A DNA stretch of 64,000 nt from the NCBI GenBank assembly GCA_018716085.1, contig DVKK01000047.1:908-64907 (forward strand). Direction: 5' to 3'. This document shows, piece by piece, positions 2,665 through 23,626 of the stretch. Source of the stretch: Candidatus Ornithoclostridium excrementipullorum (GTDB lineage: Bacteria; Bacillota; Clostridia; Christensenellales; UBA3700). The position numbers were made by a program, and so were the translations under genes. Positions within the stretch are counted from its first letter, which is position 1; each line of letters starts with the position of its first letter. The notes beneath the pieces are model-generated. The model searched no databases. It worked only from the letters and a program-made list of their open reading frames with translations, and was not told where the DNA came from.

Positions 2665-3012
2665 TGGTGGAGCTGAGGGGAGTTGAACCCCTGTCCAAGA
2701 AAATTTTCAGGCCGCTTTCTACATACTTATCGGATGTTTATCGTCCCGTGCAGGCTACGTCCGCAAAGCCTGTTCCGGCAAGCCGCAAGATCTTGTCGCG
2801 TCGACTGCGGCGCATCGCCGCGACCCTTTTCCACTGACCGATGTCCGTAGGGGAGCGTGGAGATCCCCCGGGACAGCTTAGCTGCAATTAGGCAGCGTAA
2901 GCGATTTGCTGATTGTTTTTAGCGTTTAATTTTAGGTTTCCGTTTTTACGAAGCCGAGCCTTCGGTATGCTTACGAGCCCGTCCGTTCCCCTGTCGAAGC
3001 CGAGACAGCCCC
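2665..3012 (-). ncRNA. ssrA: tmRNA
   Basis: The minus strand starts GGGGCTGTCTCGGCTTCGACAGGGG and ends GGGGTTCAACTCCCCTCAGCTCCACCA. The acceptor stem has a G3:U70 pair. Internal tag reading frame GCT AAA AAC AAT CAG CAA ATC GCT TAC GCT GCC TAA encodes AKNNQQIAYAA. Confidence 0.9.
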
Positions 3013-15012: not shown

Positions 15013-15474
15013 ATGCAAAAGAAGAGAGTCCTTTTCGTATGTCTGGGCAATATATGCCGCTCGCCCATGGCGGAATTTATATTCCGGAAAGCGGCGGAAA
15101 GGGAAGGCCTTGCCGATATGTTCGAAACGGCTTCCGCGGGTACGAGCGCGGAGGAGGAGGGCAATCCCGTCTATCCTCCCGCAAAAGCGGAACTTGCCCG
15201 TCACGGTATCTCATGCGAGGGCAAGCGCGCCCGAAAGATAAAGAGAGAGGATTACGGCGCCTTCGACGCGATCGTGACGATGGAAGAGCGCAATTCCGCC
15301 GCGGCAAAGCGCTTTTTCGGCGGGGATCCCGACGGTAAGATACGCAGACTGCTCGATTATACCGACCGACCGCGCGATATAGCCGATCCTTGGTGGACGG
15401 GCGATTTTGCCCGAACGTATTCGGACATCGAAGAAGGCACGGAAGCGTTGCTGAAACTGCTCCGCGATCGGTAA
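15013..15474 (+). CDS. low-molecular-weight protein-tyrosine phosphatase
   Basis: P-loop VCLGNICRSP (CX5R) and DP motif DIADPW. Start reassigned to ATG 15013 after AGGAGGG. Confidence 0.85.
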   Translation: MQKKRVLFVCLGNICRSPMAEFIFRKAAEREGLADMFETASAGTSAEEEGNPVYPPAKAELARHGISCEGKRARKIKREDYGAFDAIVTMEERNSAAAKRFFGGDPDGKIRRLLDYTDRPRDIADPWWTGDFARTYSDIEEGTEALLKLLRDR

Positions 15475-16640: not shown

Positions 16641-17555
16641 TCAGCGCGTGGACAGTCCCAGCAGATTGTTGCGGTAATTGTAGCGCTTCATAACTTTTAT
16701 CTTGCGCGAAGTCGTGACTTCGGTATATCTTTCCGTCACGGAGATGTTCGAATGCCCCAAAAGCTCTTGGACGGAGCGCAGGTCGGAGCCGTTTGCCAAC
16801 AGATTGGTCGCGAACGTGTGCCGCAGATAGTGCGGCGTGGACGAAGACGCTATCTTGGCTCCGTCGCGGTATTTTTTGAAAATATCTTCTATGCCGTGTT
16901 CCGAGAGTTTGCAGAGGTGGCGGTTGACGAACAGATAGTCGTTGTCGGGGCGCAGTTTTTTGCGTACGGACAGCCATTCGCGCAGATTGTCCAGAGTTTC
17001 GGAGCAGGACAGGTACAAAAGCCGTTCCTTGCGGCCTTTGCCGTGTATCAATACTATGCGCGAGCGCATATCGAGATCGTCCAGTCGTATGGCTGCGGCT
17101 TCGCCGATACGTATACCCGTCGACGCGATCAGATCCAGAAGAGCAAGATCGCGGGTTATCTGGAATCTGCCGAATTCGCTAACGGCGCAGGCTTTCAGCC
17201 TGTACAGATAAGAGAAGAGTTTGCGCATATCGTACAGGGGAATGGTCTTGGGCAGGGAGCGCTCGAGTTTGATCTTCATGTCCAGATCGTTCATGGGATT
17301 ATTTTTTCTGTCATGCTTGTAGACGTATGCGAAGTATTGCGACAAAGAAGCTACGTGCCTCTTGATCGTCGCGGATTTGTGCCCCGTCTTGTAGAGCATG
17401 GTCAGGTACTCGCGCAGCCCCAGTCCGGTATCGTTTTCGAATCTCGAGAAATTTCCGAGATCGGAACGGTACGCTTTTACGGTCTTGTCGCTCAGGTTTT
17501 TCGAAACAGCGCAATACAGTATGAATTCCGCTATTTTTTCTTCATTAGTAAACAT
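16641..17555 (-). CDS. tyrosine recombinase, XerC/XerD-like
   Basis: Catalytic signature TGIRIGE (Arg), HGKGRKER (Lys), HYLRHTFAT (HxxR) and LLGHSNISVTERYT (His, Tyr). GGAGG SD is upstream. Confidence 0.85.
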   Translation of the reverse strand: MFTNEEKIAEFILYCAVSKNLSDKTVKAYRSDLGNFSRFENDTGLGLREYLTMLYKTGHKSATIKRHVASLSQYFAYVYKHDRKNNPMNDLDMKIKLERSLPKTIPLYDMRKLFSYLYRLKACAVSEFGRFQITRDLALLDLIASTGIRIGEAAAIRLDDLDMRSRIVLIHGKGRKERLLYLSCSETLDNLREWLSVRKKLRPDNDYLFVNRHLCKLSEHGIEDIFKKYRDGAKIASSSTPHYLRHTFATNLLANGSDLRSVQELLGHSNISVTERYTEVTTSRKIKVMKRYNYRNNLLGLSTR

Positions 17556-17826: not shown

Positions 17827-17917
17827 GCAGAGTTGTCCGAGAGGTCGATGGTGCAGCACTCGAAATGCTGTGTTGCCTAATAGGTAACCCAGGGTTCGAA
17901 TCCCTGACTCTGCGCCA
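17827..17917 (+). tRNA. tRNA-Ser (anticodon CGA), CCA encoded
   Basis: Acceptor GCAGAGT/ACTCTGC, anticodon stem CAGCA/TGCTG with loop CTCGAAA, long variable arm GTTGCC-TAAT-AGGTAAC, T-arm CAGGG-TTCGAAT-CCCTG. Confidence 0.9.
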
Positions 17918-18734: not shown

Positions 18735-18895
18735 GATTTTGCAAAAGGGGCTCGTGCCAAAGGCGGCGCGCGGGCTCCTTTTGCTTTGCAAAAATCCCGC
18801 AGATACGGCAACGGGCGTTTGCGGGCGCCTTGCTGCCGCGATACGAACGCCCGAAACGGAGCGGCTTTCCCCGTCAGGGGAAAATCGAGGTGAAT

Positions 18896-20185
18896 ATGAA
18901 AAAATTAAAAGCTGAAATGTGGGACAAGGTGCAATACATCTTTCGCAACTATTATGACGGAATGATACATTGCGCGATAGTTTACCGCGGTAAAGTCGAC
19001 GAAGCGCTGTTGCGCAGGGCGATCAAACTCGTCGTGGACAAGGTAGACGTGCTGCACTCTTCCTTTGTTGCGCATCCGATAGATCCGTATTGGAGAGTCA
19101 ACGATGATTATACGGAAGAAGAGATGCTCGACGTGGTGTACGGCGACGTTTCTCACGAAAAGATCGAGGAATTGTTGGTCAGGCACGTGGACTATCGCGG
19201 GAAGCTGCAATTCAAGGCCACTTTGGTCAAGGAGAGCGGAGATAAAAGCGTGCTTTGTTTCGTCATCAATCACATATGCTGCGACGGCAGGGATTTCATA
19301 AGGCTGATGGGCGAGATATGCGCGGCATATCGCTCGCTCGCGCTGTACGGAGCTTACAAGTCGGATATAGCGTCCGGATCCCGCGGCGCCGAGCAGATAT
19401 ACAGGGATCTGCCCGAGCACGTGCGGAAAAAGGCTCGCAGGCTCTACAAGAATATATCCGGCACCGACATCAAGACGAAATTTCCGTTCGAGCAGGAGAC
19501 CGAAGCGGACAAACCGCATATCGCACGCGCAAAACTGAGCGCCGACGTTATGAGCGCGCTGAAAGTCCGCGGCAAAGCCGAAGGGTATACGGTCAACGAT
19601 ATCTATCTCGCGGCATATTTCCGTGCGGTCAAAGCGTTTTGTTCTCTGTCCGAAGACTGTCCGGCGGAGATCACGTCCATGCTCGATATGCGTCGCTATC
19701 TGAAAGACGGCAAGACGGAGGGGCTTACGAATCTGACTTCGTACATGCAGTGCAAATTGCTTTCGGGCATAGGCAGGGATATGACGGACACGCTGACGCG
19801 CGTAGCCGAAGCGCTCGAGCCGCAAAAAAGCGACCCGACGCTGGGTATGGCGGGGCTTCCGCTCATGGCGTTGGGACTGAAATTTCCGTTCTTTATCGGA
19901 AGCGCGTTGGTAAAGCTGGGATACAGCAATCCGCTGTTCACAATGAGCAATATGGGAGTGTTGAACGCAGACGATCTCGCGCTTGCCGAGGCGAAGGCGG
20001 AGGACGCGTTTTTCACCGGTACGGTCAAGTACAAGCCTTATATCCAGATAGCCTGCACGACGATGAACGGAGAGGCGACTTTTACCGTATGCGAGAAGTG
20101 CTCCGACAGGGACAAACGCGCCATCCGAGCGTTTCTGGATCGATTTACCGGCGAATTGGAGAGATACGCAAAGGGCAGTCGTTAA
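18896..20185 (+). CDS. stand-alone condensation-domain/PapA5/WS-DGAT-like acyltransferase (HxxxDG)
   Basis: Motif VINHICCDGRDF matches HxxxDG. At about 430 aa it fits a single condensation-like fold. Start reassigned to ATG 18896 after GAGGTG. Confidence 0.7.
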   Translation: MKKLKAEMWDKVQYIFRNYYDGMIHCAIVYRGKVDEALLRRAIKLVVDKVDVLHSSFVAHPIDPYWRVNDDYTEEEMLDVVYGDVSHEKIEELLVRHVDYRGKLQFKATLVKESGDKSVLCFVINHICCDGRDFIRLMGEICAAYRSLALYGAYKSDIASGSRGAEQIYRDLPEHVRKKARRLYKNISGTDIKTKFPFEQETEADKPHIARAKLSADVMSALKVRGKAEGYTVNDIYLAAYFRAVKAFCSLSEDCPAEITSMLDMRRYLKDGKTEGLTNLTSYMQCKLLSGIGRDMTDTLTRVAEALEPQKSDPTLGMAGLPLMALGLKFPFFIGSALVKLGYSNPLFTMSNMGVLNADDLALAEAKAEDAFFTGTVKYKPYIQIACTTMNGEATFTVCEKCSDRDKRAIRAFLDRFTGELERYAKGSR

Positions 20186-20610
20186 ATCGCAGCGGAAGAC
20201 TTGAGTCGGGAACGGACATTATACATTTATTGGGTATAATAAAAATATAGTATAGAAGTAAAGTCTTTATGCGTGAGCGTTCGTTCATTAAATACGTGTT
20301 CCGCGACATGGCAGAAAAGACTCCGAACTGAAAAAGCGTGTGGACGGAGTCGCTTCCGCGGCGGTATTTAACCGCATGAAGCGTATCCGTCCCATGGTAA
20401 AGACCGTTTGTGGCGCTAGGGCTTGACGAGGTATATAGATCCGCGTAGACCTTGTTCAAGCGGGGCGTTCATAAGTTATTCGACGACGCCGATCTCATAG
20501 TCGGGATGTCGAGGCTGAATAAGATCGTTCTGCCGCTGCGCTATTATTGCAAGTTCGTCACACTGTCGAATACGGAGAGGGCGAATACGAAAAGAGCCCC
20601 GATCCTTTTT
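20184..20610 (+). repeat. direct repeat copy 1 (decayed copy of 23054..23489)
   Basis: aaatcgcagcggaagacttgAgtcgggaacgga matches 23054 onward. Long stretches such as ctgaaaaagcgtgtggacgg.gtcgcttccgcggcgg are shared. The copy has several indels. Confidence 0.85.
20240..20610 (+). pseudogene. pseudogene of an LMW-phosphatase family gene (paralog of 23110..23586)
   Basis: Aligns to codons 1 to about 127 of the intact gene. The CX5R P-loop region is unrecognisable. A 1-nt deletion (aagactccgaacTGA versus aaggatcccgaactg) shifts the frame into a stop. An in-frame TAG (gcgcTAGggc) and further indels follow. The 3' ~95 nt are missing. Confidence 0.75.
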
Positions 20611-21061
20611 TAACACAGAATATAAAAAATGTTTTCATACTATTACCAATAATTTTCTCAGACACTGACATTATCGCCAATAAATCACGAGCGGATAATA
20701 GGGAGTGCATTTATCTTTCAATATGACGTAAGCAGTTTTTGGAGATCAAAAAGTATACGTGGGAACAGCTATCGATCGCAGTTTGCGTGGAAAAGATATA
20801 TATTTTGCAAATATATTGTAACCGAGAAGGGGCAAAACATGAGATCTCAGCGGCAGATAGAGGATCGCGTTTCCGATAAATTCGATTATCTCGGGAGAGG
20901 TCGTTCGGGAAGTTTGCGCATATCATGGCGTTGATCGAGGGGTGAATCTCGACATAATTTATTCTATATTAAAAAGATCATCGCATTTCAATTCGACATA
21001 GATATAGTAATTTTAAGTAACATTATTTAAAAAACTATTTCGAACAGTACGAAAAGTCGGG

Positions 21062-21286
21062 TCAATCGTCGGTACGGTTGCCGCACTCGTCGGTAATGCC
21101 GAGCAAAAAATCGCTGCTTACGTCGAAAAACCTGGCGACTTTGATTATCGCAGAGGCAGTAGGCTCTGTTTTGGAAAGCTCCCATTTGGCGATCGCAGAT
21201 TGACTTTGACCGAGTTTTGCGGCAAGCTGCTGCTGGCTTAAGCCTCTCTCTATGCGAAGTTCTTTCAGCGTTTTATCAAAACTCAT
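21062..21286 (-). CDS. XRE-family HTH transcriptional regulator (74 aa)
   Basis: MSFDKTLKELRIERGLSQQQLAAKLGQSQSAIAKWELSKTEPTASAIIKVARFFDVSSDFLLGI is a canonical Cro/C1-type HTH. Confidence 0.85.
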   Translation of the reverse strand: MSFDKTLKELRIERGLSQQQLAAKLGQSQSAIAKWELSKTEPTASAIIKVARFFDVSSDFLLGITDECGNRTDD

Positions 21287-21321
21287 ATGAACAATATTAT
21301 CAAAGTTAAGTCGGATAATAC

Positions 21322-21350
21322 TTGACAAGTCTTATAAGACTTGATATAAT
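21322..21350 (+). promoter_or_regulatory. consensus sigma-70 promoter with embedded palindromic operator
   Basis: TTGACA (21322..21327), 17 nt, TATAAT (21345..21350). An 18-bp perfect palindrome CAAGTCTTATAAGACTTG (21326..21343) fills the spacer. Confidence 0.7.
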
Positions 21351-21376
21351 TCGATTAAAACAAGGAGGAGATCGGA

Positions 21377-22396
21377 ATGAAAGGTAAAGTTATCAAGATC
21401 ACGGCGGCGTTTGCGTTGTTGGCGGCGTTTGCAGGGGCATTGACCGCATGCGGCGGCGTAGAGTTGAATCTGTCGTTTTATGTGGACGGGGAGAGGTATG
21501 CTGTCGTTTCGACCAACGGAGGCGAAGCCGTATCGATGCCTGCCGATCCGATGAAAGACGGATATACTTTCGAAGGATGGTTTTGGGACGAAGGAGAGTG
21601 GTCTCTGCCGCTGACGACCATGTCGTTGATGAACGTTCCGCTGTCGTCCGATATGAGAGTGTACGCAAAGTGGAGTCCGAACTCAAATGAGGAAAAAGAC
21701 GGTGAAAAAAACGATATGCAGAACGCCGATAACGGCGGCTTAACGGATATCGAAGCCGAAGAACTGACTTCCGCAGAGCTTTTCGGTATTGTTCCTGACG
21801 AGCATTATTCCGCTAAGTATATGGGAGGTACGCTTTATCATTGGATATGGAACGGGGCTGACGTTACGGCGGCAGTGATCGACGGGCTGTCGTCCAAGGG
21901 GGCTGTCGCAACGGGAAAGTGGACGAGTTCAATCGCAATGAAGTGGTGTGGCACAAGGGTTGAGATGAACACGGTCGACATGGGAGCGTATCACGTGGAA
22001 TATTTCGACGGCGAAGGAAACGTGACGGTTTATTATATGAATATAGAAATAAGCGACGCTCCCGACGCGTCCGAGGACGGCGGGGAAAGCGTAGATATCG
22101 GTTTGACGCACGAGCAGATGATAGCCGTATTGGACGAAGCCGTTGCGAGAGGAAATGTGGTTGCGACCGGAAGGCGCGGGGATTACGTGGTGGAGGTCCC
22201 GTATACGGACGAACTTATAGCGATATCCGGGCTTAAAAAGAGCGCGTTGTTCTTATCCGGAGCTCCGTTCGATTATATTCGCGACGGATACGTCTATATA
22301 AACGTGGTCGACGAGTACGGCGGCGAGTACAGAATACTCGGATACGGAATAAACGAGTATGACGGCGGATGGTATGCCGTCTGCATACGCCGTTGA
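21377..22396 (+). CDS. lipoprotein with one Listeria-Bacteroides (Flg_new) repeat and an uncharacterised C-terminal region
   Basis: Lipobox AFAGALTACGG. DGYTFEGWFWDEGEW...VYAKW matches the Flg_new repeat pattern. GGAGG SD is upstream. Confidence 0.8.
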   Translation: MKGKVIKITAAFALLAAFAGALTACGGVELNLSFYVDGERYAVVSTNGGEAVSMPADPMKDGYTFEGWFWDEGEWSLPLTTMSLMNVPLSSDMRVYAKWSPNSNEEKDGEKNDMQNADNGGLTDIEAEELTSAELFGIVPDEHYSAKYMGGTLYHWIWNGADVTAAVIDGLSSKGAVATGKWTSSIAMKWCGTRVEMNTVDMGAYHVEYFDGEGNVTVYYMNIEISDAPDASEDGGESVDIGLTHEQMIAVLDEAVARGNVVATGRRGDYVVEVPYTDELIAISGLKKSALFLSGAPFDYIRDGYVYINVVDEYGGEYRILGYGINEYDGGWYAVCIRR

Positions 22397-22428
22397 CGAT
22401 CGGCGGCAAAAATACGGGAGATAACGAG

Positions 22429-22974
22429 ATGGAAGAACAGGATCGTAAAGAGGAAAGGGGCGGGGATATCGAAATGCAAAGCGGATCGGATCGGGTCGGC
22501 GGTCCGACAGGCTCGGACGGATCGCAAACGGGCAAGGCATCGGGTGTTGTGTCGAACCGTGCGGCAGCGAGCGGCGTTTCACAAGCGGCGAGTTTTTATC
22601 AAAGGCACAAAGTTTGGATATGGATAGCTGCGGCAGCAGTCGTAGCGGTGGTGTTGATCCTGATCATCGGGTCGTCCGGTACGCAGAAATACGTCGGTAC
22701 CGATACTAAGTTCGACGTATCCGTGGAGTTGGAGTCAAACGGCGAGTTTACTCTGACCGAAACGACGCTTGCCACCGGAGAGATATATACCGTAAAAGGA
22801 ACGTACGAATATCTCGGCAGTAACGATACGGTCATCCGATTCAATATCCGGAACGTAAACGGCGAAACGTTTCAATACTCGTTCACATGTCAGATAATGA
22901 CCAATATATACGGTACGCCGTTTATCAGTTTTACATCTTCGCCGTTCGATTATCCGCCCTGCTATAAACAGTAA
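22429..22974 (+). CDS. bitopic membrane protein, unknown function
   Basis: Disordered Gly/Ser/Asp N-terminus, TM helix VWIWIAAAAVVAVVLILIIG, then a ~110-aa beta-rich C-terminal domain. Start is at ATG 22429 after GGGAG. Confidence 0.65.
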   Translation: MEEQDRKEERGGDIEMQSGSDRVGGPTGSDGSQTGKASGVVSNRAAASGVSQAASFYQRHKVWIWIAAAAVVAVVLILIIGSSGTQKYVGTDTKFDVSVELESNGEFTLTETTLATGEIYTVKGTYEYLGSNDTVIRFNIRNVNGETFQYSFTCQIMTNIYGTPFISFTSSPFDYPPCYKQ

Positions 22975-23053
22975 AGCGGCGAAAATGCTATGCGGGCGTC
23001 GGATATGACGGCGGGACAGACGATCGCGGATCGGGAATCTGTTCGAACGTGCG

Positions 23054-23489
23054 AAATCGCAGCGGAAGACTTGCGTCGGGAACGGAGCATATAATATAAT
23101 CAATATATTATGAAGATACTTTTCGTGTGCTCTTCCAATATCTGCCGTTCGCCGTTTTGCGAATACGTGTTCCGCGATATGGTAGAAAAGGATCCCGAAC
23201 TGAAAAAGCGTGTGGACGGGGTCGCTTCCGCGGCGGTGTTCAACCGCATGAAGCGTATCCACCCCATGGCAAGGACGGCGTTGCTGCGCGAGGGATTCGA
23301 CGAGGCGTATATAGATTCGCACCGTCCTTCGTTCAAGTGGGGCGATCGCAAATTGTTCGACGACGCCGATCTCATAGTGGGGATGTCGAGGGCGAACAAG
23401 ATCGTTCTGCCGCTGCGCTATCACCGCAAGTTCGTCACGCTGTCGGAATACGGAGAGGGCAGATACGAAAAGATCCCCGATCCGTTTTT
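23054..23489 (+). repeat. direct repeat copy 2 (promoter region plus the 5' four-fifths of the intact phosphatase gene)
   Basis: Homologous to 20184..20610. See the repeat copy 1 entry. Confidence 0.85.
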
Positions 23490-23586
23490 GATGAAGAACG
23501 TAGACGACTATCTCGCGGTCATGGATTTTCTGAAAGCAAAGATAGTATCGTTCGCCGAAAAGATCAAGAGCCTGCCTTGCGACTGA
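23110..23586 (+). CDS. LMW phosphatase family protein (protein-tyrosine/arsenate-reductase-like fold)
   Basis: P-loop VCSSNICRSP (CX5R) and IPDPF motif. 158 aa. Confidence 0.8.
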   Translation: MKILFVCSSNICRSPFCEYVFRDMVEKDPELKKRVDGVASAAVFNRMKRIHPMARTALLREGFDEAYIDSHRPSFKWGDRKLFDDADLIVGMSRANKIVLPLRYHRKFVTLSEYGEGRYEKIPDPFLMKNVDDYLAVMDFLKAKIVSFAEKIKSLPCD

Positions 23587-23600
23587 GGCGAGATAACGGA

Positions 23601-23626
23601 CCGCGCGCTTTCGGCGCGCGGTTTTT
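23601..23626 (+). terminator. intrinsic terminator
   Basis: CCGCGCGC-TTTCG-GCGCGCGG followed by TTTTT. Confidence 0.75.

Follow-up and report, generated by a model that had tools for sequence, protein, structure and literature searches.

The locus described here lies in a 64,000-nucleotide (nt) stretch of DNA from Candidatus Ornithoclostridium excrementipullorum (assembly GCA_018716085.1, contig DVKK01000047.1, positions 908-64,907 of the forward strand). This whole stretch is referred to as the window, and all coordinates are window positions unless another locus is named. The locus consists of an acyltransferase gene, a decayed 5' fragment of a low-molecular-weight (LMW) phosphatase gene, a 2.43-kb cassette (20621-23053) that encodes a regulator and two envelope proteins, and an intact LMW-phosphatase-family gene (Table 1). 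The fragment and the 5' part of the intact gene are the left (L) and right (R) copies of a direct repeat (H) that extends from the promoter region to about codon 129 of the phosphatase gene. Recombination between these two copies is seen as hybrid repeats in other contigs of the same species.

The two copies have the same orientation. With the R copy as the query against the whole assembly, the single other match is the L copy (BLAST; E 3e-102, 80% identity over 436 nt). A repeat finder resolves the similarity into collinear ungapped blocks of 40, 34, 90, 23, 115 and 53 nt at a spacing of 2870-2878, most of them 85-90% identical and one, of 23 nt, 78% identical. The original prediction, made by reading the sequence, was a diverged direct repeat of about 430 bp (20184-20610 and 23054-23489) that matches at about 90% in the best stretches and less well, with indels, elsewhere. 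The repeat was recovered as described, with the ends extended to 20620 and 23498, and the similarity is clearly significant. Thus, 437-bp direct repeats, 2870 bp apart, bound the 2.43-kb cassette, as in an amplifiable unit. Alignment of the L and R copies reveals no perfect or identical terminal core at the repeat borders. In addition, a 19-nt segment at the end of the cassette (23030-23048) is an inverted match, at 17 of 19 positions, to 23465-23483 (and to 20588-20606), which pairs the terminal bases of the cassette with the repeat end. This match lies 5 nt from the right junction of the cassette, scores higher than any other inverted alignment of the repeat with the cassette, and was equaled by none of 2000 shuffles.

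Table 1. Features of the repeat-flanked locus (window coordinates)
Feature	Position	Strand	Evidence or remarks
Acyltransferase gene, stand-alone condensation-domain/PapA5-like	18893..20185	+	Pfam Condensation, E 7e-8
Left repeat copy, truncated pseudogene that reaches from the phosphatase promoter region to about codon 129	20184..20620	+	
Indel-ridden patch of the L copy	20224..20290	+	-10 box altered, start codon destroyed, CX5R P-loop deleted; in all strains
AT-rich spacer (37-41% GC), left end of the cassette	20621..21061	.	Composition
XRE-family helix-turn-helix (HTH) regulator, divergent from the cassette operon	21062..21328	-	Pfam HTH_3, E 4e-18; PHROG repressor families
Consensus promoter TTGACA-17-TATAAT of the lipoprotein operon	21322..21350	+	12/12 matches
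Lipoprotein with one Listeria-Bacteroides (Flg_new) repeat	21377..22396	+	Pfam PF09479
Membrane protein, 181 amino acids (201 from the alternative start at 22369)	22429..22974	+	Species orphan
19-nt inverted match to the repeat end	23030..23048	.	Repeat-cassette inverted alignment
Right repeat copy	23054..23498	+	Functional promoter region plus 389 nt at the 5' end of the phosphatase gene
Intact LMW-phosphatase-family gene, 158 amino acids	23110..23586	+	Pfam LMWPc
Terminator-like hairpin and T-run, 3' of the phosphatase gene	23602..23626	+	

The L copy is heavily damaged. Its first base is one of the final two of the stop codon (TAA, 20183-20185) that ends the acyltransferase gene; the acyltransferase itself matches the NCBIfam PapA5 subfamily below the cut-off (E 6.5e-7). 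A 67-nt patch near the start of the L copy seems unalignable without gaps. When gaps are allowed, it is accounted for by an insertion of about 13 nt, the change of ATG to ATAG, and deletions of 16 nt and 3 nt that take out the P-loop residues CSSNIC; support for this gapped solution is modest, with 52 of 2000 shuffles reaching its score. A promoter-like sequence, CGGACA-16-TATAAT (20213-20240), was created within the altered patch. The rest of the copy contains four indels (five nucleotides deleted) that are fixed in all strains, an in-frame TAG and a frameshift into TGA, and the strain alignment shows that the major lesions are common to all strains. Homology ends at about 20612-20622, so that the last ~90 nt of the gene are missing. 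These observations agree with the predicted start at the acyltransferase stop codon, loss of the CX5R P-loop, frameshift into TGA, in-frame TAG and further indels, and, within a few nucleotides, with the predicted abrupt end near 20610 in AT-rich DNA and the absence of the last ~95 nt. A decayed continuation past 20620 was considered and rejected: pairwise shuffles gave p of about 0.002-0.006, but the nhmmer profile of the genus stops at 20622, and when the entire window was searched by nhmmer for the 3' part of the gene, the region was not listed. Two other origins of the 67-nt patch were also discarded, namely copying from elsewhere, as the genome holds no other copy, and inversion, which was excluded by eye only, the indels being sufficient to account for the patch. 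With neither P-loop nor start codon, the TAG, four fixed indels and a truncation at about codon 129, the L copy does not qualify as a functional phosphatase gene. In strain L039, the L copy contains, between 20421 and 20422, a 22-nt insertion that consists of CTTGACGAGGT (11 nt) twice and repeats the CTTGACGAGGT next to it, a product of recent slippage in DNA that is free of constraint.

The R copy belongs to a gene that is intact, as had been predicted. The 158-amino-acid product matches the Pfam LMWPc family (PF01451) with 59.3 bits (cut-off 23.2; E 6e-16) over profile positions 1-143 of 144. Its translation contains an N-terminal P-loop, C8-SSNIC-R14-S15, that fits CX5R(S/T), and a C-terminal Asp-Pro general-acid loop, D125-P126-F, so that by both profile and motif the predicted protein qualifies as a member of the LMWPc family. 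Orthologs from the nearest species are 83-87% identical and adjoin nrdD. The promoter of the gene (TTGCGT-18-TATAAT, 23071-23112) is followed by an ATG only 10 nt past the -10 box, with no Shine-Dalgarno sequence, which suggests that the phosphatase mRNA is leaderless or nearly so; the layout of the promoter is identical in the nearest species. Another LMW protein-tyrosine phosphatase gene, of canonical type (VCLGNICRSP ... DPWW), is located 8 kb upstream (15013-15474, plus strand); it is a distant paralog and takes no part in the repeat.

Contigs of the same species were collected by exact-protein look-ups and represent different samples and assemblers. Among the homologs of the phosphatase, there is a cluster of 11 hybrid sequences (P0012 and 10 cluster members) that combine a right-type 5' part with the frameshifted tail of the L copy (R5'/L3'). 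The full-length open reading frames (ORFs) of this cluster encode 126 and 164 amino acids, and two shorter members are cut by contig ends. Two further sequences of 146 amino acids (P0009 and P0125) have the opposite structure, with the scrambled start of the L copy and a right-type 3' part (L5'/R3'). Contigs made by three different assemblers contribute to a set of eleven distinct hybrid proteins. When typed at 103 fixed diagnostic columns, all hybrids are clean single-crossover products.

The contigs that carry these hybrids differ in their arrangement. In contig L052, the order is acyltransferase, L copy, cassette, R/L hybrid, cassette, R copy, nrdD, and the two cassette copies are identical. 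Contigs L054 (2936 nt, with a 55-nt terminal overlap) and L055 (2912 nt, with a 30-nt terminal overlap) each represent a closed cycle of one cassette and one R/L hybrid, and these two cycles come from different strain backgrounds; the short linear contig L056 contains the same R/L joint. In contigs L053 and L057, the acyltransferase gene is followed by an L/R hybrid and the cassette is gone; L057 runs on into nrdD. The underlying assemblies, samples or runs are ERZ28614267 / SAMEA6814670 (L052), ERZ28614940 / SAMEA104467353 (L054), ERR4096483 (L055), ERZ27239295 (L056), ERR9525716 (L053) and SRR14687501 (L057). The crossovers of the R/L hybrids map to 23326-23378, 23380-23438 and, twice, 23446-23460, in assemblies built with k-mer lengths (k) of 55, 119, and 55 and 31, respectively, and the first of these intervals, that of L052, narrows to about 14 nt against the copies present on the same scaffold. 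Since these intervals are shorter than the k of the respective assembler, the hybrid molecules were present in the reads, and the fact that there are several crossover positions speaks for homologous rather than site-specific exchange. The R5'/L3' hybrids thus show that crossover between the repeats occurred more than once, at several points, and their joints imply duplication or circularization of a 2.88-kb unit. The reciprocal deletion, which leaves an L5'/R3' hybrid without the P-loop, is likely but less secure: L053 and L057 are Logan contigs (k=31), and their crossover falls in a 66-nt identical block that is longer than k. Copy-number variants with a hybrid repeat at the novel joint and with varied crossovers are the signature of an amplifiable unit, and L052, L054, L055 and L056 all display it. 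The locus therefore behaves like a repeat-flanked amplifiable unit, and the copy number of the cassette varies in natural populations.

Comparison with 14 other species of the genus indicates when this arrangement arose. In 12 of them, the acyltransferase gene, the phosphatase gene and nrdD are directly adjacent, with gaps of about 100-300 nt and no cassette; of the remaining two, one has the acyltransferase and phosphatase genes on separate contigs, and the other, an 84%-complete genome, yields no match. The uninterrupted arrangement that the original prediction anticipated in related genomes was accordingly found, and an old tandem paralogy with both copies intact does not apply, because the relatives have a single copy. 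No cassette DNA was detected in any of the 14 species. The cassette and the duplication are thus specific to the lineage of this species. Within the species, all retrieved contigs that are long enough to span the locus (nine places found through the phosphatase, the three longest contigs found through the lipoprotein, and one JGI contig) carry the L copy, the cassette and the R copy at 97-100% identity to the window, the recombinant forms excepted, and shorter contigs are consistent. The JGI contig came from a scan of JGI metagenomes with a shared 35-mer, which yielded three contigs, one with the full normal arrangement and two partial but consistent ones. The repeat and the cassette are fixed in the species.

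The left flank of the locus is a variable region, as indicated by strain differences upstream of the acyltransferase gene, where most strains have a recombinase, L039 has an IS200/IS605 Y1 transposase and L046 has a metallophosphatase gene. In the window, this position is occupied by a Xer-like tyrosine recombinase (16641-17555, minus strand) that scores below the cut-offs of the XerC and XerD models and lies next to tRNA-Ser(CGA) (17827-17917, plus strand). This is the tyrosine recombinase nearest to the cassette, 3 kb outside it. Farther upstream, the window contains a tmRNA gene (2665-3012, minus strand) with the tag peptide AKNNQQIAYAA.

The history of the two copies was reconstructed from a maximum likelihood tree of the alignable 329 nt that included the L and R copies of 10 strains and seven congeners. 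The L and R clades are sisters with 100/100 support, and the stem that they share is 0.18 substitutions per site long, counted from the nearest species; the stems of the individual clades measure 0.079 (L) and 0.017 (R). The position of the two copies as sisters on a long shared stem implies that the duplicated piece is the lineage's own DNA and not a foreign copy that restored the gene. Polarization of the fixed L/R differences with the two nearest species assigns 15 fixed substitutions, distributed over the codon positions as 4:9:2 (13 at positions 1 and 2), and four indels to the L lineage; the R lineage has only 4 fixed lineage-specific substitutions (1:0:3). Among the strains, 47 columns segregate in L versus 10 in R. 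Evolution of the L copy is about four times faster and free of codon constraint, whereas the R copy is under purifying selection. Gene conversion also affects the repeats: R-type patches are present in the L copies of strains L038 and L044, and L-type intergenic variants in the R copy of L039. The native junctions are split between the copies, with the acyltransferase junction kept by L and the junction to the 3' end of the phosphatase gene kept by R, so that neither of them can be called the import. The original prediction offered two models, segmental duplication followed by decay or insertion of a cassette, and elements of both hold: the empty site in relatives attests to the insertion, and the 15 versus 4 fixed changes attest to the decay of L. 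A 5' portion of the target gene imported with the cassette is contradicted by the tree. The phylogeny that was expected to single out the native copy instead places both in the species' own lineage, and neither stands out as the native one, since each keeps one native junction.

The contents of the cassette were searched against Pfam, PHROGs, NCBIfam and PADLOC. None of the four libraries detects a recombinase in the bracketed segment, as the original prediction had it. The AT-rich spacer contains no stop-to-stop frame with a match in Pfam (E up to 10) or PHROGs (E up to 1), and thus no recognizable remnant of an integrase, an excisionase or a Rep protein. The cassette has no replication gene (no match to a Rep family), no iterons in the spacer and no match to plasmid DNA; the 2.88-kb cycle therefore does not look like a plasmid or another autonomous replicon with an initiator and origin of its own. 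Other possible sources were examined and rejected, namely phages and plasmids (no DNA match to either) and the congeners (no DNA match in the 14 species). Membership in a defense system was rejected as well, since PADLOC gives only generic HTH matches. An apparent decayed 3' end of the acyltransferase gene at 22975-23053 is not significant, as 714 of 3000 shuffles reach its score.

The C-terminal part of the lipoprotein is nearly an orphan: among 5.8 billion proteins, its relatives beyond its own cluster are two distant clusters with 45-47% identity, which are encoded on Christensenellales-type contigs in other genomic contexts with no neighbors in common. At these loci (L047, 7657-8996, and L048, 1138-3450), each of the distant homologs is encoded beside a small, divergently oriented HTH gene; one adjoins a DpnII-type restriction-modification cluster and the other is near a RhuM-family gene. 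The two HTH proteins show no detectable kinship to the XRE protein of the window. The membrane protein has no match in Pfam, NCBIfam or PADLOC, and its homologs are confined to the species. There is no terminator-like site between the last cassette gene and the phosphatase promoter (22975-23109), so that transcription from the strong cassette promoter may continue into the phosphatase gene.

Taken together, these data are probably best explained by an insertion-duplication that today functions as an amplifiable unit between flanking repeats. Under this scenario, one ancient event in the ancestor of the species, younger than the separation from the nearest sampled species but older than the divergence of the strains, would have separated the acyltransferase and phosphatase genes by a foreign or orphan cassette of 2.43 kb and, at the same time, doubled 437 bp of the species' own DNA, that is, the entire intergenic promoter region and codons 1 to about 129. 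The resulting order H-cassette-H would follow from single-crossover (Campbell-type) integration of a circle with a homologous fragment, which requires no site-specific recombinase, and would be equally expected from insertion with a long target duplication. Only the R copy is connected to the 3' end of the gene, and it has remained functional; the L copy, never able to encode the full protein, has decayed. The repeats still exchange short gene conversion patches, and their R5'/L3' hybrids are found either in a tandem duplication of cassette plus repeat or in the equivalent 2.88-kb closed cycle, with the changes in copy number presumably driven by the homologous recombination machinery of the host.

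Several observations weigh against this scenario or limit it. Assembly graphs cannot separate a tandem array from a free circle, and the two traversals of the loop in L052 may be the assembler's coverage-based choice, given that the cassette copies are identical. The evidence of deletion is weak, as L053 and L057 are possibly graph artefacts, the 66-nt block being longer than k=31. Because gene conversion is active, the sister relationship of L and R could be inflated by concerted evolution. The sequence points to no donor and no intermediate state, and no genome of the same species has a pristine empty site. Finally, the 19-nt inverted match at the right junction and the coincidence of the L boundary with the acyltransferase stop codon are features for which the scenario does not account.

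Among the alternatives, a history of two independent steps is fairly unlikely. The 437-bp tandem duplication could have come first, followed by insertion at the novel joint; or the cassette could have disrupted the gene at codon 129, followed by repair through uptake of wild-type DNA, with a homology joint on the right and an illegitimate joint on the left. Either order gives the observed arrangement from the lineage's own DNA. Homology-facilitated illegitimate recombination is an established route for insertions with homology on one side (PMC3240628), and if selection favored the restoration of a phosphatase that is essential or useful, the inclusion of the entire promoter region in the duplicated piece would be accounted for. 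Nevertheless, two rare events at the same nucleotide positions would be needed, and the assemblies examined include no intermediate that has the duplication but no cassette, or the cassette but no duplication. The present data do not distinguish the two-step models from the one-step model.

A more elaborate version of the circular form is distinctly unlikely. The 2.88-kb unit would be a circularizing element free of any recombinase that uses the host-gene fragment as its attachment arm and leaves and re-enters the chromosome purely by homologous recombination of the host. Integration of such an element would never inactivate the target, because the fragment includes the promoter and the 5' end. 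Such an element could also enter naive relatives after DNA uptake, and it would be a natural counterpart of the laboratory insertion-duplication vector.

Very unlikely, too, is a degenerate site-specific integrative element that targeted about codon 129 and brought a foreign 5' replacement, with the L copy as the stranded native part and the integrase lost in the spacer. The abrupt end of homology inside the gene and the XRE repressor-like gene next to the AT-rich spacer at the left end are compatible with such an origin, and the imperfection of the repeats could date from the insertion. Nonetheless, L and R are sisters on a long shared stem, and neither is foreign at the available resolution; the spacer retains no integrase or excisionase remnant recognizable with Pfam or PHROGs; and the cassette has no phage or plasmid DNA match. 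There is neither a recombinase in or next to the element nor a short core to which exchange is confined: no conserved identical core marks the boundary, and crossovers fall at three or more places inside the repeat. Finally, the notion that the repeat is a static fossil and that the tandem duplication, closed cycles and deletions are all metagenome assembly artefacts gains something from the identity of the L052 cassette copies, from the deletion crossovers in a 66-nt identical block longer than the k used by Logan, and from the frequent mixing of strains in metagenomes, but is extremely improbable given four R/L crossovers confined to about 14, 15 (twice) and 59 nt, all below k, such that the k-mers joining R to L were necessarily in the reads, and eleven distinct hybrid proteins from three assemblers.

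The insertion-duplication scenario has several implications. A pseudogene fragment beside its live parent can hold a cassette in copy-number flux (one copy, two, a loop and possibly none) in wild gut populations, and this flux occurs here even though the repeats are only 80-88% identical. In trees of duplicated fragments, gene conversion between the copies obscures the native one. For the annotation of metagenome-assembled genomes, the short 'LMWPc' ORFs of 126, 146 and 164 amino acids in public collections are products of recombination between the copies rather than novel forms of the phosphatase. Should the unit exist as a free circle, re-integration by homology would make it a minimal, recombinase-less carrier of accessory genes.

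Three known types of systems resemble this locus to different extents. Phages and islands that integrate into tRNA genes or protein-coding genes can restore the gene that they interrupt, and the locus shares with them the partial gene copy at one border and the intact gene at the other. It differs from them in having no integrase and no short identical core, in the duplicated part not being foreign and in the spread of the crossovers. When a circle with a piece of the target gene integrates by a single (Campbell-type) crossover, the product is that of insertion-duplication mutagenesis with suicide vectors. In both cases, the target fragment forms direct repeats around the insert, one copy is truncated at the 3' end and the other is full length, the latter because the fragment includes the promoter and the 5' end; both arrangements are reversible by recombination between the repeats and need no site-specific recombinase. 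The locus described here, however, is natural, old and fixed in the species, its repeats have diverged to 80-88% identity, and the circle and the one-step origin are inferred.

The closest counterparts of the present-day behavior are repeat-flanked amplifiable units, such as the amplifiable units of DNA in Streptomyces. Like those units, the locus is bounded by direct repeats of a few hundred base pairs, shifts its copy number through unequal crossover and has a hybrid repeat where the novel joint lies; the reciprocal deletion, if real, would also be as expected. In contrast to those units, the flanks consist of a gene fragment and its live parent, rather than copies of insertion sequences or rRNA genes, and are only 80-88% identical, and the cargo is a regulator with two envelope proteins. 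Tandem amplification by recombination between direct repeats is amply documented, for instance in heteroresistance (PMC12892994), the mechanism of tandem gene amplification has been reviewed (PMC1428787), and a laboratory analog is available in the recombination measured between 438-bp repeats placed 1.5-10.5 kb apart (PMC4627823). The locus clearly exemplifies a type of genome change that is ordinary and already known. What is particular to it is that a gene fragment and its live parent form the repeats, that these repeats are no more than 80-88% identical and that the variants reach a frequency in wild populations at which they are assembled.

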